Shown in pieces: positions 2,508 through 55,814 of a stretch of 64,000 nt of DNA. How positions within the stretch are numbered: the stretch's first letter is position 1; every line of letters starts with the position of its first letter. The notes beneath the pieces are model-generated. The model saw nothing but the letters and a program-made list of their open reading frames with translations. It made no database searches and was not told where the DNA came from. This DNA comes from Vulcanimicrobiota bacterium (GTDB taxonomy: Bacteria > Vulcanimicrobiota > Vulcanimicrobiia > Vulcanimicrobiales > Vulcanimicrobiaceae), in assembly GCA_963833095.1 (NCBI GenBank), contig CAWHWQ010000008.1, forward strand, positions 128,001-192,000, written 5' to 3'. Made by a program: the position numbers and the translations under genes.

Positions 2508-3518
2508 GCATGCCTCCGATCAGCGATTGCGTCGCAGCCAGGATGCGCTCGACATCCAGATTTGCGATGCAGGCGTAGTCGCTGCAATTCTCTTTCGTAT
2601 CGCCCGCGTGGCACGCAAACGTCGCGCGAACGACGGCGGTGTGCGCGCCGAGCGGTGCCCAGCGGTCGGGGAAATCACTCTGGAACGGAAAGATGCCCAC
2701 CGTCGGCGCACCGACTGCCGCCGCGACGTGCATCGTTCCAGTGGTGATACCGACGAATGCACGCGCCCGCTGCGCGAGCGCGCCGAACGCTCCGATTCCA
2801 ACTTTCCCCGCGATATTCACGACCCTCTCATCGCCCGCTTGGCGGAGGATAGCCGCATTTATTGCCTCATCACCCTGCGCTCCGCTGAGCAGAACGTCGC
2901 ATCGAAGGTCTGCGCTAACGCGTTTGCAAGCGCCGCCCAGCCTTGCGTCGGCCAAATCCCGCGCTCCGACGCAATCGCGTTCGTCGGATGGAGAATGATA
3001 TACTGTCCATCGACTACGTTCGCTTCGCTCATTACGCTCGGAATGACAAGTTCATCTTCCAGGGTTGGTATGAAGCGTGGAATGCGATCGCTTGTGTCGC
3101 AATCGAGCGCGCGCGCATAGTCGAGCAAGATGTCGACCCACGGCGAGGTGACGTCGCCGCGTTCGCTGCGGACGACGACGCGATTCGTGAAGTCGTGCGA
3201 GTAGAGCCGTCGCGCCTGACCGACGCGTATCGGGATCCTCGCGAGCTTCGGTACACGCGCGGTACGGGCCGTCGCCCACGTCACGATACACGCATCGTAG
3301 CCCCGTTCTTGCAACCGCGCCGCAAGCGCACGCTCGTCGCCGCCGTCGTCCACGAGGACGCCGTCGAGATCCGGGACACGTTCGAGCGTGCTGCGATGCC
3401 CCGGTAGCGTGAGCGCGTCGACCTGCTCAAAACGCGCGCGCAGCGCGCGCCCGACGACCGACGCGACCAGCGAATCACCGATCCCGCCGCCGGCGCAATA
3501 GAGAAGGGCTCGCGTCAT
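2476..3518 (-). CDS. Glycosyltransferase family 9, split by one frameshift near 2895
   Basis: MTRALLYCAGGGIGDSL (ATG 3518, ATGA overlap) continues in another frame to GITTGTMHVAAAVGAPTVGIFP...RWAP. Confidence 0.85.
3006..3048 (-). repeat. REP-like short element translated in frame inside the GT9 gene
   Basis: TGTCATTCCGAGCGTAATGAGCGAAGCGAACGTAGTCGATGGA (VIPSVMSEANVVDG). Its end matches intergenic 42751-42765 at 14/15 nt. Confidence 0.5.
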
Positions 3519-4399
3519 GACGCAGGTGACTCGTCGAGCACGCGCACGAGCTCGCGCGCGTACATGCCGTCGAGGAACTGTCCGCGTGCCAGCGAGCGCA
3601 TCCACTCCGGCGCCTTTTCGCTGGTTGCGATTCCCGCATAGACAGCCAGTAACGAGTCAGGAAGCAAATAGCGCGCGCGCAGCAGGTTTACCGGATGCGC
3701 GCCAGTGGCCATCCGCGCTCGGGGTGAGGCCTGCTTTTCAAGAAAGTGTCGCGCCATGCGCGCCCGCTCGATGGCCTTGCGCGTCTCGACTTCGAGCGTG
3801 TTGTCCGCCGGTGATTTGATATGCCAGAGGTACGCGTCCCACGCAAAACGCCAATGGACGCCGGCTTCGCGCAACCGCACGCCCAGTTCGGTATCTTCCC
3901 AGCCGTACAGATGAAAGGCCTCATCAAATCCGCCGACCGCATCGATCGCGTGCTTTGGCAGAGAGACGTTACACGTGCACAAGAACGCGCGCGAGTAGTT
4001 GGCAAGGGCTGGCTTTGGCCGGTCGTCGTATGAGGGGACGTTGAGGATGGGGCCGTTTACGATGAGGTTTCCGGTACCGTGCGCGGCTTCGTGCGCAGCG
4101 AGAAAGGCCGGGGGCAACTGCACGTCATCATCGATAAAGAGCACCAAGTAGCCTTGGGCCACCGCGATGCCGCGGTTGCGCGCTTTGCCGCGATTGGGCT
4201 GCGGCTCGAAGACATATTGTACCGGGTAACGCCCACGCTCCGTTTGCCATTTGACGACGTCTTTGGTGTCGTCGCTCGACCCGTTATCAACCACGATGAG
4301 CTCGAATGAGGGCGCACCGATCTGCTCCTCGAGCGACGTGAGCGCGCGCGCGAGGTAGTCGGAGCGATCTTTGGTAGCGATAATGACGGAGATGCGCAT
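3515..4399 (-). CDS. Glycosyltransferase family 2
   Basis: ISVIIATKDR, VDNGSSD, FIDDD and YGWEDTELG motifs. Confidence 0.9.
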   Translation of the reverse strand: MRISVIIATKDRSDYLARALTSLEEQIGAPSFELIVVDNGSSDDTKDVVKWQTERGRYPVQYVFEPQPNRGKARNRGIAVAQGYLVLFIDDDVQLPPAFLAAHEAAHGTGNLIVNGPILNVPSYDDRPKPALANYSRAFLCTCNVSLPKHAIDAVGGFDEAFHLYGWEDTELGVRLREAGVHWRFAWDAYLWHIKSPADNTLEVETRKAIERARMARHFLEKQASPRARMATGAHPVNLLRARYLLPDSLLAVYAGIATSEKAPEWMRSLARGQFLDGMYARELVRVLDESPAS

Positions 4400-9668: not shown

Positions 9669-10607
9669 ATGAGCACCTACGCACTCTTTGGCGCATCCGG
9701 TTCCACGGGTGCAAGCATCGCCTCCGCACTCGAGGCCGTGGGCCAGCAGTACCGCGTCGTTGGGCGCGACCGCGCGACGCTCCAGGCGGAATTCGGAAAT
9801 CGGCCGCTCGCCGAGATCACCGAGTGGAATCCCGACGACCCCGCATCGGTCCAAGCCGCCGCGACCGGCATCGATACGATCTTCTATCTCGTCGGCGTCC
9901 CCTACAATCATTTTGAACTGCATCCGCAGATCATGCGCGCGACGCTGAACGGTGCGATCGCGGCTGGCGTGAAACGCATCGTACTGCTCTCGCCGATTTA
10001 TAGTTACGGGCGGCCGGCGTCGGCGACCGTCGACGAATCGCATTCGCGCAACCCCGACACGTTTAAAGGCAAGATGCGCAAAGAGCAAGAGGATCTCGTG
10101 CTCACCGCCCACGCCGCCGGCCAAATCGAGGCCACGATTCTGCGCGTTCCGGATTTCTACGGCGGCGATCCCAAGAAGAGTTTAGTCGGCGATATTTTCG
10201 TTGCTGCGGTGAGCAAGCGCCGCGCCAACGTCATCGGTCCGATCGATAAGCCGCATCAATACGTCTTCATCGACGATATCGGCCCTGTCGCGCTCGCGCT
10301 CGCGCGCGAAGACCGCGCCTTCGGCAAAGCGTGGAACTTCGCCGGCTCGGGCACGATCACGCAGCGTGAGTTTGCAACAAAAGTGTTCGCGCAGGTTGGC
10401 CGCAAGCCGCAATTGATGGTAGCCAACCTCTTCATGCTGCGCTTGATCGGGCTGTTCGACCCGATCATGCGCGAGCTCGTCGAAATGAATTATCTTCAGA
10501 GCGATCCGGTGCTGCTCGACGACCACGCGTTACGCACGCTGCTTCCCGGAGTGCGCGTAACATCCTACGACGACGGTATCGCCCACGTCTTGTCGACGAC
10601 GGCCTAA
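9669..10607 (+). CDS. NAD-dependent epimerase/dehydratase (SDR/NmrA-like)
   Basis: MSTYALFGASGSTG Rossmann motif; RVPDFYG. Confidence 0.85.
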   Translation: MSTYALFGASGSTGASIASALEAVGQQYRVVGRDRATLQAEFGNRPLAEITEWNPDDPASVQAAATGIDTIFYLVGVPYNHFELHPQIMRATLNGAIAAGVKRIVLLSPIYSYGRPASATVDESHSRNPDTFKGKMRKEQEDLVLTAHAAGQIEATILRVPDFYGGDPKKSLVGDIFVAAVSKRRANVIGPIDKPHQYVFIDDIGPVALALAREDRAFGKAWNFAGSGTITQREFATKVFAQVGRKPQLMVANLFMLRLIGLFDPIMRELVEMNYLQSDPVLLDDHALRTLLPGVRVTSYDDGIAHVLSTTA

Positions 10608-48915: not shown

Positions 48916-49684
48916 ACCGATGCGCGGTGCTCCGAGCAATTCTTTCGCGAGCGAAATATAGGCTTGCGCGCCGCGGCTCTTTACGTCGAAGAGGATGACC
49001 GGTTTGCCAAACGACGGCGCTTCAGAAAGACGGATGTTGCGCGGAATCTGTGTTTTGAACATCTGCTGCGGGAAGAATTTTTCAAGCTCGTCGAGCACTT
49101 CCATCGCCAGGCGCGTGCGGCCGTCGAACATCGTCACCAGGACGCCGCTGACGTGCAGGGTGGGGTTGAGCGCTTCGCGCACGCGGCGGACCACGGCGGT
49201 GAGCTGCGAGAGACCTTCGAGCGCGTAATACTCGGCTTGCACCGGAATGATCGCTTCTTCCGCCGCGGTGAGCGCGTTAATCGTGAGAAGCCCGAGCGAC
49301 GGCGGGCAATCGATCAAGATGAAATCGTAGCGTGAGGCGACCGGTAAGAGTGCTTGGCGTAGACGCGTTTCACGCGAAAGCAAAGAGACAAGCTCGATCT
49401 CGGCACCGGCCAGATTGATCGTTGCGGGCACGAGCGTAAGTGTGTCGATCTCCGTGCGCACCGCGACATCGTCGATGCTCGCTTCCTGCAACAAGACGTC
49501 GTAGACATCGCGTTGCAAGCCGTGCTTGTCGATACCGAATCCCGTCGTCGTGTTGCCTTGCGGATCGCAATCCACGACGAGCACGCGCCGGCCTTCAACG
49601 GCAAGCGCAGCACCGAGATTAACGGCTGTCGTGCTCTTTCCGACGCCGCCTTTTTGATTTACGAGGGCGATAATGCGACGTCAA
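48912..49684 (-). CDS. parA: ParA/Soj ATPase with apparent indels at both ends
   Basis: [31 protein letters not shown] and LSEAPSFG motifs. Confidence 0.95.
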
Positions 49685-51072
49685 CCGATGGCTCTGTCAA
49701 CAACGGCGAGATGGCCGTCCAGTAGTGCGAGGAGAACTTCGCGCTCGTTACGCTCGGGGCGCTCTGTAACCTGCTCGAACAGCCAGTGCAGCGCTGCGCC
49801 GACGCGTGCATCACCGCGAAATTCGCTCGGCGCCAAACCGTGGCGCACCATCGCTGCAATGACGTCGCCGCCGCTGATTGCAAGGTCGGCAACCGAGAAC
49901 GCGGGCTTGCGTTCTACTTCCTCCCAGACCCGTGCTTCGAAGCGCTCGTTCGAATCGTCGCGCTTGGGCAAACCCGAACCCGCGATATCGGCGTGGCGCA
50001 CGGCGAACTGGCGCTGCAAATGCTCGAGGCCGATGCGGCGGATGAAACGGCGAATCGCCGCGTCGCTGAGCTCGGGGTCCTGCACGTACATGTGCTGGCG
50101 GATCAGGTGCTCAACCGTGTCGACCGTCTCGTTGGAAAAGCGCAACCGCTGGAGCATCGCGGCCGCCATGTCGGCCCCGACCTGCTCGTGGCGATAGAAA
50201 TGCGGGCCTTCCTTCGTTCGGGGCTTGCCAACGTCGTGGAGTAGTGCAGCCAAGCGAAGAGTCGCATCCCTCGGTGGAATTGCATCGAGGGTCGCTAGGT
50301 TGTGTTGCCAGACATCGTAAGCATGCCACTCGTTCTGCTCGACGCCGGCACCCTCGAGCAGCTCCGGCCAGAACCGCGCGAGCACCCCGGTATCCGCCAG
50401 GAGGCGCAGCCCAATGGAGGGCTTGGGCGCCAGGCCGAAGAGTTTTTGCAATTCGTCGTGGATACGCTCGGGCGCGACGCTGCTCACCAGAGGAGCGGCC
50501 GCGCGCATCGCCTCGATCGTGGCTGGCGTGGGCTCATAGCCGAAGCGTGCGGCGAACTGTGCGGCGCGCAGCATGCGCAGCGGATCTTCTTCGAAGGCGA
50601 CCGGGGTAAGGATATCGATTCGGCGCGCGCGGATGTCAACCGCGCCGCCATAGGGATCGACGAGCTCGGCGCCCGGAAGCGCACGGGCGATCATGTTCAT
50701 CCGGAAGTCGCGCCGAGCCAGGTCGTCCTCGAGGGGGATCTCCGGCCCGCTCTGGACCTCGAAATCGCGGTGTCCATGGCCGGTTGAGCGCTCGCGGCGC
50801 GGCAACGCCACGTCGACGACCAGGCCGCCGACCGTCAGCTTGGCCACCGCAAAGGCGGCGCCAACGAGATCGACCCGTCCCAGCGTCTGGAGGCGCGCGG
50901 TCAACGCCTCGAGCGTCAGGCCAGTAACGACATAGTCGAGATCCTTGGCCGGCACGTCGACCCCTTCGAGGTCAGCACGAAGCTCGTCGCGCACCCGACC
51001 GCCGACGGCAAAGAGCCGGCCGGGCGCGAGCGCCTCAGCCAGCCGGGCGTCGAGCGGATGAGACTGGTACAT
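49681..51072 (-). CDS. CCA tRNA nucleotidyltransferase / poly(A) polymerase family with HD domain
   Basis: VGGRVRD, DLD, RRDF, EDPLRMLRA and LLHDVGK motifs. Confidence 0.92.
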   Translation of the reverse strand: MYQSHPLDARLAEALAPGRLFAVGGRVRDELRADLEGVDVPAKDLDYVVTGLTLEALTARLQTLGRVDLVGAAFAVAKLTVGGLVVDVALPRRERSTGHGHRDFEVQSGPEIPLEDDLARRDFRMNMIARALPGAELVDPYGGAVDIRARRIDILTPVAFEEDPLRMLRAAQFAARFGYEPTPATIEAMRAAAPLVSSVAPERIHDELQKLFGLAPKPSIGLRLLADTGVLARFWPELLEGAGVEQNEWHAYDVWQHNLATLDAIPPRDATLRLAALLHDVGKPRTKEGPHFYRHEQVGADMAAAMLQRLRFSNETVDTVEHLIRQHMYVQDPELSDAAIRRFIRRIGLEHLQRQFAVRHADIAGSGLPKRDDSNERFEARVWEEVERKPAFSVADLAISGGDVIAAMVRHGLAPSEFRGDARVGAALHWLFEQVTERPERNEREVLLALLDGHLAVVDRAIG

Positions 51073-51166
51073 CGCCTCCTATCGTATCAGGACGGTTCCA
51101 TGCCGCTTCGCGGCGCCGCACATCCTGTGCTCGGAACCTTCCTCACCATCCTGGCGATCGCGAAAA

Positions 51167-51182
51167 TGTTCCCCGTGAAACA
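51167..51182. promoter_or_regulatory. parS: parS-like site 1
   Basis: TGTTCCCCGTGAAACA matches TGTTNCACGTGAAACA at 15/16; upstream of the parAB operon. Confidence 0.8.
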
Positions 51183-51289
51183 TTTGGTGATTATCCCTTG
51201 ACCGCACGTATCCGGCGGAAAGGATTTTTCGCCATTCCAGGTTGGAACGGCGCTGAAAAGCGACTCATCTGAGAGGATTCTCACTCCTG

Positions 51290-51318
51290 TTGAAACCGAA
51301 ATTGGACCAACGTAGACT
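51290..51318 (+). promoter_or_regulatory. Sigma70-type promoter for the 62-aa passenger ORF
   Basis: TTGAAA-17 nt-TAGACT, followed by AAGGAGG at 51334-51340. Confidence 0.6.
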
Positions 51319-51348
51319 TGAGGCATCAGGGCTAAGGAGGCCCAAGCT

Positions 51349-51537
51349 ATGATGCCCGCAGACGAACCCTTCGCTGTGACCAGAGTGATCGGCACCGCCC
51401 ACGATTTGGTTCAAATGCTTCGTGGCTACGGTCAACCCGCAGTTACTCCAAGCGCGGTCGTTGACGGCAAGAGCCTCAAGGACGCGCTGCTGGGCCTGCG
51501 GAGCGTTATCGACGAATTCTTAGCGGGGAAGCTCTAA
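51349..51537 (+). CDS. 62-aa hypothetical IS passenger protein
   Basis: Strong RBS and promoter; amphipathic C-terminal helix LKDALLGLRSVIDEFL. Confidence 0.65.
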   Translation: MMPADEPFAVTRVIGTAHDLVQMLRGYGQPAVTPSAVVDGKSLKDALLGLRSVIDEFLAGKL

Positions 51538-51655
51538 GAATCGCGTTCCGATTCCGCCTTAGCTACCTCTGCCGCCGCAAGCTTGCCGTACCAGGTAAGG
51601 AACTCCTCGCTGTGCTCGACGCCGAAAGCGATGATCGACCTCGGCGACAGCCTTT

Positions 51656-51808
51656 TTACTCAGCCGTTTCTTTAACGCGGAGCCGGATTGCGAGCAGCTT
51701 GCGGTTCTCGTCCTCAGTAAGTTCGGGACGGCTAATCTCGACGAGATTTTCAAGTTCGTCCTCATCCGGATCGCGAGCTTTGCGCGTTCGTTTGGCCTTC
51801 TCTTCCAC
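51656..51808 (-). CDS. 50-aa charged passenger ORF, possibly truncated
   Basis: TGCTATAGT extended -10 just upstream of GTG; MEEKAKRTRKARDPDEDELENLVEISRPELTEDENRKLLAIRLRVKETAE. Confidence 0.4.
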   Translation of the reverse strand: MEEKAKRTRKARDPDEDELENLVEISRPELTEDENRKLLAIRLRVKETAE

Positions 51809-51954
51809 GGGAAGGCCACTATAGCACGTTGATCCGCGAATTTGCTTCGATCATCCGCAAAAAGAGCAGGATAGCGGATTTTCCTCGGGGAACAGCATCG
51901 AACACACGGTCGCGAGGATGAAGCCTACGCTTCGCCCAAACGGCCAAGTCCCGA

Positions 51955-51989
51955 AAGGGAAGGGCGCCAACGTTGCAACGCTGACGCCC
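51955..51989 (-). terminator. Hairpin downstream of the tRNA-like gene
   Basis: GGGCGTCAGCGT-TGCA-ACGTTGGCGCCC followed by TTCCCTTT. Confidence 0.45.
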
Positions 51990-52008
51990 ATTGGACCGGT
52001 TCTGGGAC

Positions 52009-52081
52009 CTCCCGGGGTCGGAATCGAACCGACAGCCTGACCATGGACAGTGGACCGCTCTACCATTGAGCTACACCGGGA
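52009..52081 (-). tRNA. Atypical tRNA-like gene, anticodon GTC (Asp), inside the IS
   Basis: Cloverleaf with D arm GCTC/GAGC and T arm GTCGG-TTCGATT-CCGAC. Bulged acceptor stem, T-T mismatch in the anticodon stem, C37, no adjacent CCA. Confidence 0.75.
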
Positions 52082-52313
52082 TCAAGGAACGAGGGCGAGG
52101 CCGCCAGCCTCGCCTTTTCCTATCCAAGGGTCCCGTTGCGTCGTTACTCTGCCCGAGTGCCCACTCCTTGTGATCGACCTGTGGATAGACCGCAATATAA
52201 TGTGCACGTTGTGTGCAGGAGCTTCAAAAACACAAGATATAGCGGGTCGATTTTCTCCCTGACCGCACGTAAAATGCCAACCAGGTGGCATGTCGGCCAC
52301 CTAGCTTAGAAGC

Positions 52314-53234
52314 ATGGCTTCTAAGACGAACCTGGCCCCCGTGCAAAAGTATACGTTCAAGGATTTCGAGCAAGACTTCCCAACCGAGCGCGCATGCATG
52401 GAATGGCTGCTGGAGCACTTCTATCCCTACGGCATCCATTGCCTGACCTGCGGTGAGGTCCGGCCTCACCATCTGCTCAAGACTCGCCCGAAGGTCGCCT
52501 CATGCGACTACTGCGGGTCGCACACACATCCGACAGCCGGTACGATCTTCCACAAGTCGCGCACGTCGCTGCGGACGTGGTTCCACGCGATCTTCCTGAT
52601 GAGCGCCACCCGATGCGGAATCTCGGCCATGCAACTAATGCGCGAAACCGGCGTCACCTACAAGACTGCCTGGCGCATGTTCAATCAGATTCGCGCCATG
52701 CTCGCCGAGAACGTCGTGCTCGAAGGCAAGGTCGAAGCGGACGAGACCTACATGGGCGGCTACAAGCGCGGCAAGAAGTATCGCGCCGGTGTCGGCAAGA
52801 CCGTTGTCGCTGGTGCGGTCGAACGTGGCGGCAAAGTGTTCGCGTACCTGCCGAAAGACGGACGCGATGGCTACGAATTAACCGAGAACATTCGAGCGCG
52901 CGTGATGCCCGAAACAATGATCTTCACGGACGAGGCGCTTCAATACAGTCGTCTGTCACGCATGGGCCAAGGCTATCTTCACCGTCGCATCCATCACGCG
53001 CAAAAAGTATATGTGCGCGGCGACGTGCATACGAATACGATCGAGGGGTTCTGGTCGTTAGTAAAAGGCGGGATTCGCGGGGTGTATCACTCGGTCTCCG
53101 CCAAGCATTTGCAAGGGTACCTGAACGAATACACCTTTCGCTACAATCACCGCGACGACGCGCGTCCTATGTTTAGGACTTTTTGCTCGAACGTCCGGAA
53201 GGACTTTGTGGCGATTCGCCGTCGCGTCGTCTAA
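52314..53234 (+). CDS. IS1595-family DDE transposase
   Basis: CxxC...CxxC zinc ribbon, GTIF, GV.YKTAWRM HTH, EADETY, TDE, HTNTIEGFW and YLNEYTFRYN.R. Confidence 0.96.
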   Translation: MASKTNLAPVQKYTFKDFEQDFPTERACMEWLLEHFYPYGIHCLTCGEVRPHHLLKTRPKVASCDYCGSHTHPTAGTIFHKSRTSLRTWFHAIFLMSATRCGISAMQLMRETGVTYKTAWRMFNQIRAMLAENVVLEGKVEADETYMGGYKRGKKYRAGVGKTVVAGAVERGGKVFAYLPKDGRDGYELTENIRARVMPETMIFTDEALQYSRLSRMGQGYLHRRIHHAQKVYVRGDVHTNTIEGFWSLVKGGIRGVYHSVSAKHLQGYLNEYTFRYNHRDDARPMFRTFCSNVRKDFVAIRRRVV

Positions 53235-53358
53235 CAGCCTTACCGAGATCACGCATGAAATCCTCACGCGTGAACGATTCTAGACCTTGCGTTTTCATAG
53301 CAGCCAACGAATCCTTACTTGTTGCCGAATTGCTGCCTTGGTTTATGAGGTCTGTCAT
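53173..53358 (-). CDS. 61-aa ORF overlapping the transposase 3' end in antisense
   Basis: AGGA RBS; helix FTREDFMRDLGKAVRR; directly downstream of the Ntn gene. Confidence 0.5.
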   Translation of the reverse strand: MTDLINQGSNSATSKDSLAAMKTQGLESFTREDFMRDLGKAVRRRDGESPQSPSGRSSKKS

Positions 53359-53379
53359 AATGGTTCCTAACTTCTCTTC

Positions 53380-54174
53380 TCACCGAGTATTTGCTTTATT
53401 TGCACGGGTTTGAAAGCCATCCATCCGCGTGATGGTCGCGACGTCTATGGCCCCTCCAACCCCGCGAACTCCGATCATCCACTGCTGTAGTGTTATCGTC
53501 ACCCGAAGCATAGAAATAACTACGTCGATGCAGTCCTGAAGGGGAAGAAACTGCCAAGGGATAGGTAAGGCGAACTGCTCCTTAAGCTTCTTTTCAAGGT
53601 CAGGGTCGTGCTTTCCGAGGATGTTCTCTACCACTTCAGGTAAGCGGAAATCGAAGCCCTGAATCAGCCGATCTACCACCTCGCGTTGACCGCCCCACTG
53701 CACCCCAAAGTCCGGTAGGCTTTCCACGGGCTTGAGATTTATTGGGACCTTCACCTCAAATGCGCGCCCGTATGGAGCGCCTTCGTCATAACCGGCCACG
53801 AAGAAAATCATCTCTTGGCCTTGCGGGGGGTTCGGGTCCATGCCCGCTTTCTTCCATTGCTTATCAAAGAAAGCGCCAAGGCGCTCGGCGAATTGTTCGA
53901 CGGAGAGCCGCTGCGCCCCGATTTCAGTGTCGAACTCGGGCATAAAGCTGACTGCCGTTCGAGGCTCATTTTGACCGATGACCCCGGCGCCAAAGGTGAC
54001 CGCAGCCACATACGGCTGAGCCTTTGAGGTTAGCAGCTTACTCGCGTGGTCGTAGGTCGCAGGAATGAGGACCTGTTGTCCATTTGGCAGTTGCTGCATT
54101 ACCGTTAAGGTGACCCGGCTGTCGGCGGCGAGCACGATCCCTTCCGGGCCTTTAAACACAAGTCCGAGAGACAT
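53380..54174 (-). CDS. Proteasome-beta/HslV-like Ntn hydrolase (IS passenger), 264 aa
   Basis: M-SLGLVFKGPEGIVLAADSRVT, FVAGYD and VGGAIDVATIT; TACAAT -10 at 54183-54188. Confidence 0.75.
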   Translation of the reverse strand: MSLGLVFKGPEGIVLAADSRVTLTVMQQLPNGQQVLIPATYDHASKLLTSKAQPYVAAVTFGAGVIGQNEPRTAVSFMPEFDTEIGAQRLSVEQFAERLGAFFDKQWKKAGMDPNPPQGQEMIFFVAGYDEGAPYGRAFEVKVPINLKPVESLPDFGVQWGGQREVVDRLIQGFDFRLPEVVENILGKHDPDLEKKLKEQFALPIPWQFLPLQDCIDVVISMLRVTITLQQWMIGVRGVGGAIDVATITRMDGFQTRANKANTR

Positions 54175-54273
54175 GGGCGGGTATTGTAGCACGGCACGCT
54201 CGGCGGCTGCCATGGGCCGTAGGTCGGTGCGGTTACGTGCCGTGCGGGGATAATCACCAAACATTTTCGCAAT

Positions 54274-54289
54274 TGTTTCACGGGGAACG
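54274..54289. promoter_or_regulatory. parS: parS-like site 2
   Basis: TGTTTCACGGGGAACG; 15-bp perfect inverted copy of site 1. Confidence 0.75.
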
Positions 54290-54409
54290 TGGCGGACGGC
54301 CAGCCTTCGAGGTTCCGCCGAGCGGGTTAGCCGGGCGATGAGCACCCCGACTGCGTCGCCTGTGCGAAGCGCGAGGCGCTTAGCGAGGCCGAATGTCGAA
54401 GGCGGCCCT

Positions 54410-55123
54410 GTGCCGAAGTTGCGCAGCGTGAAGATCGGGCTGAGCTACGATCAGGGGTCGCCCAAGTATCGCCTTTATACCGGGGCGCTTATGGCTGCCG
54501 CGGAGCAGGCCAATATCGATGTTCAACCCTTTTGGCTCGCCGGCGCGGACCGGGAAACTGACTGGACCGCGATCCAGACGATGGACGGCCTGTTGCTTAC
54601 CGGCGGAGCCGACATCGAGCCGCAGCGCTATGGTCTGAGCGACGCCGCCGGCGTTTGCTCGACGTATCCGGGGCGCGACGACATTGAATGGTCAATTCTC
54701 GAGGCCGCGATGGCGCGGCGTTTGCCGATGCTTGCGATTTGCCGCGGCATGCAGCTCATCAACGTATACCACGGCGGGACGCTCCATCCCGACCTCGTGA
54801 CCGTTGAGAACCATCAGCTCGACGATGACCGGCGACACGCCGTGATGTGCGAGGCGACGGCGGCATTGCCCATTCTCATCGGCCAACTCGAGGGCGAGGT
54901 CACCTCGACCCATCATCAGGCCGTCGCAAAGCTCGGGCATGGGCTTCAGATTGCCGCGCGCCACGCGGACGGGACGGTCGAAGCGATCGAATGGACCCGC
55001 CCGATGCGCCGCCCGTGGCTAGCCGCTGTACAGTGGCATCCGGAGCGCATGGGGCTCGATGAACCATTTTCGGGCGGACTTTTCCGCGGGTTTCTACAGG
55101 CCGTCTCGCTCGCGCGCGACTAA
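54410..55123 (+). CDS. Peptidase C26 / gamma-glutamyl-gamma-aminobutyrate hydrolase family
   Basis: LTGGADI.P..YG, AICRGMQ, HHQAV and VQWHPE motifs. Confidence 0.92.
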   Translation: MPKLRSVKIGLSYDQGSPKYRLYTGALMAAAEQANIDVQPFWLAGADRETDWTAIQTMDGLLLTGGADIEPQRYGLSDAAGVCSTYPGRDDIEWSILEAAMARRLPMLAICRGMQLINVYHGGTLHPDLVTVENHQLDDDRRHAVMCEATAALPILIGQLEGEVTSTHHQAVAKLGHGLQIAARHADGTVEAIEWTRPMRRPWLAAVQWHPERMGLDEPFSGGLFRGFLQAVSLARD

Positions 55124-55136
55124 GCCGACCCCGCGC

Positions 55137-55814
55137 CTACCAGCAGAGCGGGCGTTTCTCCGGAACGCCCGTCCGCCGTGGGAAACGGCTCGGGGTGGGC
55201 CCGATTTTCCGCACCACAATGACGCGACGGTCGCCTTCGAGCGGCGTTTCGCTCTCGACGTGACCGCCCAGCATCACGGCCGCATCGCTGAGCGCATGGC
55301 GCTCGCGCGCGTCGATCGTGCCGCGTTGCAAGAGCGCTTTGCCGCCGACGGCCACGAACGGCAACAACAATTCGACCACGGTCGGACCGCCGGCGACCGC
55401 ACGTGCCGTCCCGGTTGCAAATTGGTCCCGCAGCCGGGTATCGTGCCCGGCGACTTCGGCGCGCTCGGGTACCACCTCGCCCGCGAGTCCCAGTTCGCCC
55501 AACATCCGCTCGAGGAAACGCGCCTTCTTCACGGTGGCCTCGATCAGGGTCACGGGGACGCCGGTTACGATCGCGAGCGGTATCGCCGGCAGGCCACCGC
55601 CTGAGCCGATGTCGACCAGCGATTCGCCGAGGTCGGCCGCAATCGTGAGGCTGTCGAGGATGTGCGGCGCAAACTCAGCCGCCGACTTCGCCCCGGTGAG
55701 ATTGAACTGACGGTTGGCCTCGAGCACGGCTTCACCATAGCGCACGAGGCGATCGAGGTGCTCGGGCGGTGCCCCGGACGCCTCAAGAAGCGCGCGAAGT
55801 TGCGGGTCACTCAA
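55137..55814 (-). CDS. rsmG: 16S rRNA m7G527 methyltransferase
   Basis: [26 protein letters not shown] and FPRR.G.P motifs. Confidence 0.95.

Follow-up and report, generated by a model that had tools for sequence, protein, structure and literature searches.

An asparagine-type tRNA-like gene with an aspartate anticodon inside an IS1595-family transposon of a Vulcanimicrobiota bacterium

We analyzed a 64,000-nucleotide stretch of DNA from a Vulcanimicrobiota bacterium (assembly GCA_963833095.1, contig CAWHWQ010000008.1, positions 128,001 to 192,000; hereafter the window), in which a first-pass annotation made from the letters alone had pointed to a non-canonical tRNA-like gene. This gene lies inside the inverted repeats of a 3,073-bp IS1595-family transposon at positions 51186-54258 (Table 1). 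The ends of the element came from empty sites, which were present in all six same-genus genomes examined (G009, G002, G010, G006, G015 and G001): there the gene for the CCA-adding enzyme (cca) directly adjoins a class-I amidotransferase gene, whereas the window has 3,073 bp between the two. The empty site of G010 holds one copy of the duplicated octamer, AAACATTT, within a palindrome, and contigs in the public runs X1 and X3 join position 51177 to 54259 with eight ambiguous letters; these contigs may come from co-occurring relatives. The limits of the homology with the only related copy, in genome G017 (see below), had also been considered as ends, and no terminal repeats were present there. 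The transposase carries a weak zinc ribbon besides its PF12762 domain, for which the cut-off is 27 bits, and the tRNA-like gene is divergent from it, as had been annotated. The element therefore combines the features of an IS1595-family transporter insertion sequence (IS), namely the transposase, inverted repeats with an 8-bp duplication and an empty site, and passenger genes. A role of the gene as an integrase attachment site finds no counterpart at the locus: no open reading frame (ORF) for a tyrosine or serine integrase lies within 49000-55500, in line with the first-pass annotation, and a search of the bacterium's own genome returned no second copy of the tRNA-like region.

Within the window ARAGORN called a single tRNA, on the minus strand (73 nt, Asp(gtc)), and the Rfam tRNA model RF00005 matched positions 52010-52080 with 49.2 bits (E-value of 1.7e-07 for the window; gathering score 29). 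Other RNA families gave only one 16-bit, chance-level match over a 701-nt region. The peculiarities described beforehand were all recovered from the sequence and the ARAGORN drawing. The D arm (GCTC/GAGC) is intact, as is the T arm (GTCGG/CCGAC); the acceptor stem is uneven, with 8 nt in its 5′ strand and 7 in its 3′ strand; the anticodon stem contains a U28.U42 mismatch; the anticodon loop, CUGUCCA, combines GUC with C37; and U1-A72 is present together with G73. The trailer reads GTC and then CCA, which places CCA 3 nt past G73 and leaves positions 74-76 without an encoded CCA. The acceptor branch can be drawn in three ways: with a U7.C66 mismatch and a 3-nt connector, as ARAGORN does, with a bulged U, or in an 8/4 form, in which an 8-bp acceptor with one U.C mismatch is joined to a 4-bp T stem by an ordinary U8-A9 connector, with a 6-nt variable loop. 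The gene thus departs from the canonical cloverleaf (7-bp acceptor, 5-bp T stem, 2-nt connector, standard pairs), and it has U33 but no purine at position 37. The variable loop comprises 5-6 nt, and there is no long Ser-type variable arm.

The Asn-like character of the body was confirmed by comparison with the 41 tRNAs that ARAGORN finds in the bacterium's own genome (8 contigs, 2.8 Mb, 81% complete), among which tRNA-Asn is the closest (57 of 73 positions identical). Acceptor positions 1-6/67-72 and G73 equal those of this resident tRNA-Asn, and the anticodon is that of Asp by both ARAGORN and the sequence. The combination of U1-A72 and G73 with GUC joins marks for one amino acid to the anticodon for another. 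Such a combination could also arise from an ordinary tRNA-Asp or tRNA-Asn distorted through assembly or polishing errors, which we regard as very improbable. Errors of this kind do occur in the assembly: a contig of run X1 differs from the window by three 1-nt indels within 3.7 kb (at 51637, 51682 and 53413), and the genome's own gatB is split over four frames (C1:131262-132686), so that ORF calls have to be read with frameshifts in mind. Over 51980-52312, however, the X1 contig matches the window with no differing letter and no gap. The canonical tRNA that polished reads might have restored did not appear, and the gene is reproduced unchanged, although X1 may be the window's own source sample and then represents a separate assembly rather than an independent sample. 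Canonical genes for tRNA-Asp (C4:94258-94334) and tRNA-Asn (C1:335581-335654) already exist elsewhere in the genome, and one indel could not also account for C37, U28.U42 and GUC on an Asn body. Indel errors are present in the assembly, but the checks available gave no sign that the tRNA-like gene is one of them.

Only one homologue of the unit with the tRNA-like gene was found, in the same-genus genome G017, where it occupies the same target site beside the amidotransferase gene in the opposite orientation. Its tRNA-like gene (53.9 bits with the Rfam model) forms a perfect 7/5 cloverleaf in which all pairs are standard, again with U1-A72 and G73; the loop CAGCUAA gives the anticodon GCU with A33 and A37. 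The transposases of the two elements are 87-88% identical in nucleotides, with nonsynonymous and synonymous divergences, dN and dS, of 0.026 and 0.69 and a proportion of differing synonymous sites, pS, of 0.45; dS for the host amidotransferase is 0.81. The tRNA bodies are identical at 43 of 73 positions (59%), and the 41% that differ correspond to about the neutral level.

Despite this divergence, the fold has been kept. Pairs were counted on our own structural parse, as the MAFFT alignment misplaced the extra base. Nineteen of the 42 stem nucleotides differ between the copies, yet 20 of 21 stem pairs are retained in the window and 21 of 21 in G017; nine pairs changed on both sides and one on one side only. 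In the anticodon stem all ten nucleotides have changed and are still paired; both copies retain the D stem, the T loop, G18 G19 and the upper part of the acceptor stem. When an equal number of random changes was placed on the stems, none of 200,000 simulations kept at least 20 pairs (mean 9.9), and the same simulation started from the resident tRNA-Asn gave 3 and 0 of 200,000. The resident tRNA-Asn itself is identical at 74 of 74 positions in five genomes of the genus. Given the neutral-level divergence, the kept pairs and the simulations, random decay, which the first-pass annotation had named in advance as its refutation, is rejected, and the proposed decaying captured tRNA is not supported; at the level of sequence comparison the gene does not behave as a pseudogene in free decay. 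It appears instead to be a structurally maintained, tRNA-Asn-derived cargo of the transposon with a switched anticodon.

Hairpins had been noted on both sides of the gene, and both are real. Downstream on the tRNA strand, a stem-loop at 51962-51989 is followed by a T-rich tail, 20 nt beyond the gene; G017 has a different hairpin with a T-rich tail at the corresponding place, i.e. a terminator is present in both copies. The upstream hairpin (8 bp, 52093-52113) lies between the tRNA-like gene and the promoter region of the transposase. It falls below the T-run threshold of the terminator scan; in G017 its stem and T-run are kept and its loop is different, and it would stop plus-strand read-through into the transposase gene. 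The two flanking hairpins are 43-47% identical between the copies, each still a hairpin. The larger structured region that had been suggested around them did not emerge beyond these parts, as the 301-nt fold has a z-score of -1.89 and 3 of 100 shuffled sequences fold equally well. Further upstream follows a conserved non-coding block, which contains a promoter-like site for the plus strand (TCGACC-16-TATAAT, 52174-52201, promoter scan); coding capacity was considered for 52128-52313 and discarded, there being no shared open frame and a stop and an indel in G017.

The position of the gene bears on a second explanation, according to which it is a captured chromosomal tRNA-Asn gene, presently functionless, that was taken up with flanking DNA as the transposon recruited a new outer end, with stems inherited or refreshed by recombination with resident tRNAs and a window copy that is beginning to decay. 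The gene indeed sits between the outer repeat and a decayed inner repeat, and multi-copy relatives start 47-66 nt upstream of the transposase ATG, where the window has the inner degenerate repeat (52244-52271, found by alignment; a substitution-only repeat search gave no match). This layout would be expected after capture of flanking DNA upon recruitment of a new outer end. Other features are also in keeping with capture. The segment past the terminator has its homologue downstream of a resident tRNA-Leu gene in another genus; the window copy shows a mismatch and one surplus base; tRNA cargo occurs sporadically in the clade; and identity is mosaic, the resident tRNA-Asn being matched exactly by the acceptor in the window and by 20 nt of the T-arm region in G017. 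Against it stand the neutral-level divergence (59% identity; pS 0.45) with zero and one broken pairs, where simulations keep on average about 10 to 12 of 21, and the change of both anticodon loops but not of the helices. In addition, conservation across the upstream 186 nt far exceeds what neutral change would leave, with 17 differences between window and G017 across 52128-52313 compared with 45% differing synonymous sites in the transposase. We consider a functionless captured gene unlikely.

To assess what the tRNA could be charged with, we considered the asparagine pathway of the host. The AsnRS model TIGR00457 exceeded its cut-off in none of five genomes of the genus (two of them single-contig), its 100-bit matches below the cut-off being ORFs of 506 and 593 aa, presumably LysRS and AspRS, whereas the gatB model TIGR00133 exceeded its cut-off in all five. 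The genus therefore most likely makes Asn-tRNA via a non-discriminating AspRS and the amidotransferase GatCAB. AspRS reads G73 and G34-U35-C36, its non-discriminating form accepting U36 as well; GatCAB distinguishes tRNA-Asn from tRNA-Asp by U1-A72; and C35 and U36, together with A20, are marks for ArgRS. U1-A72, G73 and the pairs 2-71 and 3-70 are common to both copies and the resident tRNA-Asn.

On the reading that we prefer, and to which we assign a probability of roughly 0.4, the gene would encode a hybrid-identity cargo tRNA that is charged and weakly mis-decodes, being neither a pseudogene nor a faithful Asp or Asn tRNA. Transcription would proceed on the minus strand from the conserved upstream block and end at the gene's own terminator; RNase P would take off the leader including the hairpin, and the 3′ trailer would be trimmed and CCA added, as with the resident tRNA-Asn, which likewise has no encoded CCA. 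With no detectable AsnRS and with GatB present, G73 and GUC would recruit AspRS and U1-A72 would recruit GatCAB. The tRNA, if matured and charged, is thus predicted to receive Asp, to be amidated to Asn and to carry Asn to GAY (Asp) codons at a low level. Its decoding is expected to be weakened by C37, by U28.U42 and by the irregularity of the acceptor branch. The transposon context, the maintained fold, the changed anticodon, the lack of an AsnRS hit and the presence of GatB are observed here, and from these we infer expression, processing, charging and decoding.

The G017 copy cannot be read in the same way because its C35 should block AspRS. Its D loop has the Arg-type G18 G19 A20 U20a A21, combined with C35 and U36 in the anticodon GCU, and among the 41 tRNAs of the window's own genome GGATA occurs in the D-loop region of the four Arg tRNAs only. 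Arg charging on Ser AGY codons is predicted for this copy. Two copies, each with coherent but mismatched marks, have the look of a family of hybrid-identity tRNAs, without amounting to proof. Weak decoding, or none, is what C37, A33, the mismatch and the additional base point to, and conserved decoding is not supported by the comparison. The earlier statement that the gene is probably not a decoding tRNA accordingly stands in part: it is not a conserved standard decoder, its sole homologue having GCU and A33; weak mis-decoding belongs to the reading set out above.

A rival explanation has the gene encode a functional, tRNA-shaped RNA that does not decode and would work via its acceptor/T-arm top half and its L-shape, either as a mimic or decoy for tRNA-binding proteins (tRNA-cleaving toxins, a synthetase or the transamidosome) or as an RNase P/Z processing signal or leader for the transcript of the adjacent small ORF. 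The anticodon arm would then need only to be a helix, which agrees with the ten changed and still paired nucleotides of its stem and with loops that differ (CUGUCCA and CAGCUAA, each 2 of 7 positions off the resident Asn loop) on an otherwise kept fold. Neither C37 nor A33 favours decoding, both copies are followed by a small ORF on their own strand, and Mukai et al. have suggested that translation makes no use of many irregular tRNAs near toxin-antitoxin systems or transposable elements (PMC5389517). However, the element yielded no recognisable toxin or nuclease as a partner, its cargo ORFs belong to no Pfam family, and between the tRNA-like gene and the small ORF stands a strong terminator. 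Moreover, the co-occurring identity marks (G73, GUC and U1-A72 in one copy; A20, C35 and U36 in the other) would be unexpected in a mere scaffold. We rate a purely non-decoding RNA as rather unlikely.

Several observations weigh against a charged, mis-decoding tRNA. With Rfam the window copy scores lower than each of the 18 resident tRNAs measured (53.1-75.6 bits; Asn 72.4, Asp 69.7), and it has one mismatch and one extra base; C37, like the A33 of G017, is ill suited to decoding. With only two members, the covariation rests on a single pair of sequences, and patches brought in from genuine tRNA genes could pass for compensation. The G017 element is decaying, its transposase being broken by a 205-nt deletion. 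No minus-strand promoter passed the promoter scan, and among the public runs searched for the stretch no RNA run was listed as containing it. The identity rules for AspRS, GatCAB and ArgRS come from Escherichia coli and other model systems, and this phylum may differ. Finally, tRNA cargo is sporadic in the transposon clade, at about 5% of elements, a frequency that does not clearly exceed the density of tRNA genes in genomes.

Phages, plasmids and integrative elements carry tRNA genes that are mostly canonical decoders, host replacements or integrase attachment sites. The present gene resembles these in being an extra tRNA on mobile DNA and differs in that its anticodon mismatches its body and no integrase is present. 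A further parallel is the tRNAProX family of Streptomyces and Kitasatospora, with A33, switched anticodons, an adjacent ProRSx gene and demonstrated mistranslation (PMC10404621). Shared with that family are one scaffold with anticodons that mismatch the acceptor marks, non-canonical residues such as A33 and a patchy distribution; the Asn-type scaffold and the transposon vehicle are different, mistranslation is a prediction in the present case, and neither the ORF list nor Pfam revealed a synthetase-like ORF in the element. The allo-tRNAs of soil bacteria (Mukai et al., NAR 2017) have diverse anticodons with GUC among the commonest; they come from soil metagenomes, and toxin-antitoxin systems and an ORF related to transposons are found in their vicinity (PMC5389517). 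Their 12-bp acceptor branch is split 8/4 or 9/3. An 8/4 drawing of the window copy is possible, with one U.C mismatch, but unlike these tRNAs with a long variable arm and Ser identity it has a 5-6-nt variable loop and Asn-type marks, and the G017 copy is 7/5. With the IS1595 transporter IS that carry passenger genes (Siguier, Gagnevin & Chandler 2009, as cited in PMC3129680) the element shares the DDE_Tnp_IS1595 transposase, terminal inverted repeats, the 8-bp duplication and passengers inside the repeats. Among publications searched in full text, none was found to report that IS1595 elements carry a tRNA or tRNA-like gene as a passenger.

If the tRNA is made and charged as predicted, a small transposon could move a codon-reassigning tRNA between genomes, and the capacity to change the proteome or suppress mutations could then be passed on horizontally. 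A one-mutation path to Asp-to-Asn misreading would be open through the indirect Asn pathway (AspRS and GatCAB), a route to Asn insertion that is not known to have been described for mismatched tRNAs. Should the RNA be non-decoding, it would still show clearly that selection has preserved a tRNA fold on a transposon and would point to a use of tRNA mimicry by mobile elements.

Table 1. Positions of features in and around the element (window coordinates) and of tRNA genes inside related elements (coordinates of the respective locus)
Feature	Position	Strand	Basis
Left target-site duplication, 8 bp, AAACATTT	51178..51185	.	empty-site comparison, run contigs
Outer left inverted repeat, 25 bp, GGTGATTATCCCTTGACCGCACGTA	51186..51210	+	empty-site comparison; clade repeat consensus
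Small ORF downstream of tRNA-like gene, 50 aa as assembled	51656..51808	-	ORF list
Conserved motif downstream of terminator; last block in common with G017	51889..51918	-	window/G017 comparison
Intrinsic terminator of tRNA-like gene: 12-bp stem, 4-nt loop, tail TTCCCTTTCG	51952..51989	-	terminator scan
tRNA-like gene, Asn-type acceptor and anticodon GUC	52009..52081	-	ARAGORN, Rfam, sequence reading
Terminator-like hairpin GGCGAGGC / GCCTCGCC, then TTTT	52093..52117	+	sequence reading
Strongly conserved non-coding block between upstream hairpin and inner repeat	52128..52245	.	window/G017 comparison
Inner degenerate left-repeat-like sequence, 43-70 nt upstream of transposase ATG	52244..52271	+	alignment
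IS1595-family DDE transposase, 306 aa	52314..53234	+	Pfam PF12762 (DDE_Tnp_IS1595), 117.4 bits
Small convergent ORF, 61 aa, tail FTREDFMRDLGK conserved in relatives	53173..53358	-	ORF list
Cargo ORF, 277 aa	53380..54213	-	ORF list; homologues in related elements
Right inverted repeat, 25 bp, reverse complement GGTGATTATCCCCGCACGGCACGTA	54234..54258	-	empty-site comparison; clade consensus
Right target-site duplication, 8 bp, AAACATTT	54259..54266	.	empty-site comparison, run contigs
L007 tRNA, anticodon CUA (amber)	4173-4245	+	Rfam, 62.9 bits
L095 tRNA, anticodon ACC (Gly)	3705-3777	+	Rfam, 62.2 bits
L156 tRNA, anticodon GUC (Asp)	3467-3540	+	Rfam, 62.5 bits
L162 tRNA, anticodon GCU, with C33	2847-2920		Rfam, 64.1 bits
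L121 / L123 tRNA, near-duplicate pair, anticodon CGG			no Rfam match at gathering score

Related transposons were sampled twice, as 161 loci of transposase relatives from genome and metagenome collections and as a further 80 relatives. The clade repeat consensus was present at both ends in 85 of the 161 loci and in 59 of the 80; the 85 two-repeat elements measure 1,355-2,990 bp (median 2,357). ARAGORN found a tRNA inside the repeats in six of the 85, always on the transposase strand and downstream of the transposase gene (Table 1), and in one of the 59, which is a duplicate of the L007 element. The tRNA cargo copies that do occur are not ordinary. Those of L007, L095 and L156 all combine G3.U70 with A73, which we take to be alanine identity marks, with three different non-alanine anticodons; the L095 element has the same protein cargo as that of the window. 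Our own covariance model, run over 200 loci, yielded weak candidates only (L078 with 44 bits, L039 with 21 and L096 with 18). This survey suggests that odd tRNAs recur on IS1595-type cargo transposons, for which a full-text search returned no descriptive paper. A far-reaching extension would be that cargo transposons of this family spread deliberately mismatched tRNAs, among them a U1-A72 scaffold changed from GUU to GUC that inserts Asn at Asp codons and its G017 counterpart re-tuned to Arg marks on a Ser AGY anticodon, which would make the element a mobile source of programmed missense translation; we hold this to be doubtful.

Other tRNA genes were seen in and near such elements. L096 contains an 85-nt tRNA on the minus strand (3414-3498), 590 nt downstream of the transposase, that scores 48.9 bits with the Rfam tRNA-Sec model (gathering score 47) and is called Leu(taa) by ARAGORN; it may be an allo-tRNA-like gene, and the right repeat of its element was not found. 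For six of the 161 related elements, a canonical host tRNA gene is located outside the repeats at a distance of no more than about 250 nt (L025:2331-2415, L050:2330-2404, L046:3206-3277, L012:5317-5393, L080:2119-2195 and L162:1465-1538), and insertion near tRNA genes may favour tRNA capture. Nineteen tRNA genes, several of them with unusual sequences, are densely packed within 2.3 kb in a genome from the same family (L195:729-2964, G356:C29), and the cluster could be the tRNA array of a mobile element.

Searches for further copies of the module returned the same pair. Members were found in two of 41 relatives and two of 348 family genomes, and the module itself in two of 401 genomes of the phylum, a search in which 13 genomes matched in all; of the other 11, ten matched through ordinary tRNAs and one through the downstream motif. 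A search of IS1595 relatives for the same fold had been suggested as a check; blastn detected the module in none of the other 80 genome and 80 metagenome transposase relatives. An exact leader pattern recovered G017 only, and G017 was the sole related one among eight matches to a pattern of T arm plus trailer; another of these, L207, was dismissed as a canonical tRNA-Asn of an unrelated phylum that shares the GTCCCA trailer.

The occupation of the same spot in the opposite orientation in G017 suggests a target hot spot. The amidotransferase of G017 is 74% identical to that of the window, compared with 85-86% for G002 and G009, which have empty sites. Because G017 is not the closest relative and closer genomes have empty sites, independent insertion of the two elements into one hot spot would be the simpler history. 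The insertion site is a palindrome (GTTCnnCGTGAAAC ... GTTTCACGnnGAAC) located between the cca and amidotransferase genes, which are divergent; the observation also covers L183 (about 9700-9750) and L164 (about 2081-2113). That a tRNA-like gene without an encoded CCA should adjoin the gene of a CCA-adding enzyme is probably a coincidence.

Beyond the terminator, window positions 51889-51961, ending in the motif TCCTCGCGACC..., are homologous to DNA downstream of tRNA-Leu(UAA) near dnaA elsewhere (L199:142-250 in G064; L234 in G202). The motif itself (51889-51918) has one copy only in its own genome and is also found downstream of the resident tRNA-Leu(UAA) of another genus (G064), before a small ORF. 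The G064 tRNA had been considered mismatched, with a Ser body and a Leu anticodon, and proved to be the resident tRNA-Leu(UAA) of its genus, which G202 and G193 have as well. The small ORF behind the motif differs from case to case, as if the motif marked the boundary of exchangeable small-ORF cassettes. In the window, the small ORF at 51656-51808 would, once the two 1-nt deletions of X1 are taken into account, continue as far as about 51540 and comprise about 89 aa; it is weakly similar to the G064 ORF (tblastn E-values of 3.8e-5 and 0.029, in two frames), and Pfam assigned no family to its relatives or to 51349-51534. The post-motif ORF was discarded as a conserved chromosomal gene, being present in one of 151 family genomes.

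Two further ORFs accompany the transposase. The one at 53173-53358 overlaps its 3′ end and retains the tail FTREDFxRDLxK where the transposases are only 50-77% identical; it is a conserved accessory protein of the transposon clade without a Pfam family. The 277-aa cargo protein contains an GPEGIVLAADSR motif and resembles, by eye only, an Ntn-hydrolase of the proteasome-beta/HslV type, with no Pfam match at an E-value of 0.1. Homologues of this protein occur in the related elements L095 (2713-3612; 51%), L092 (3001-3792; 43%) and L045/L047 (47%).

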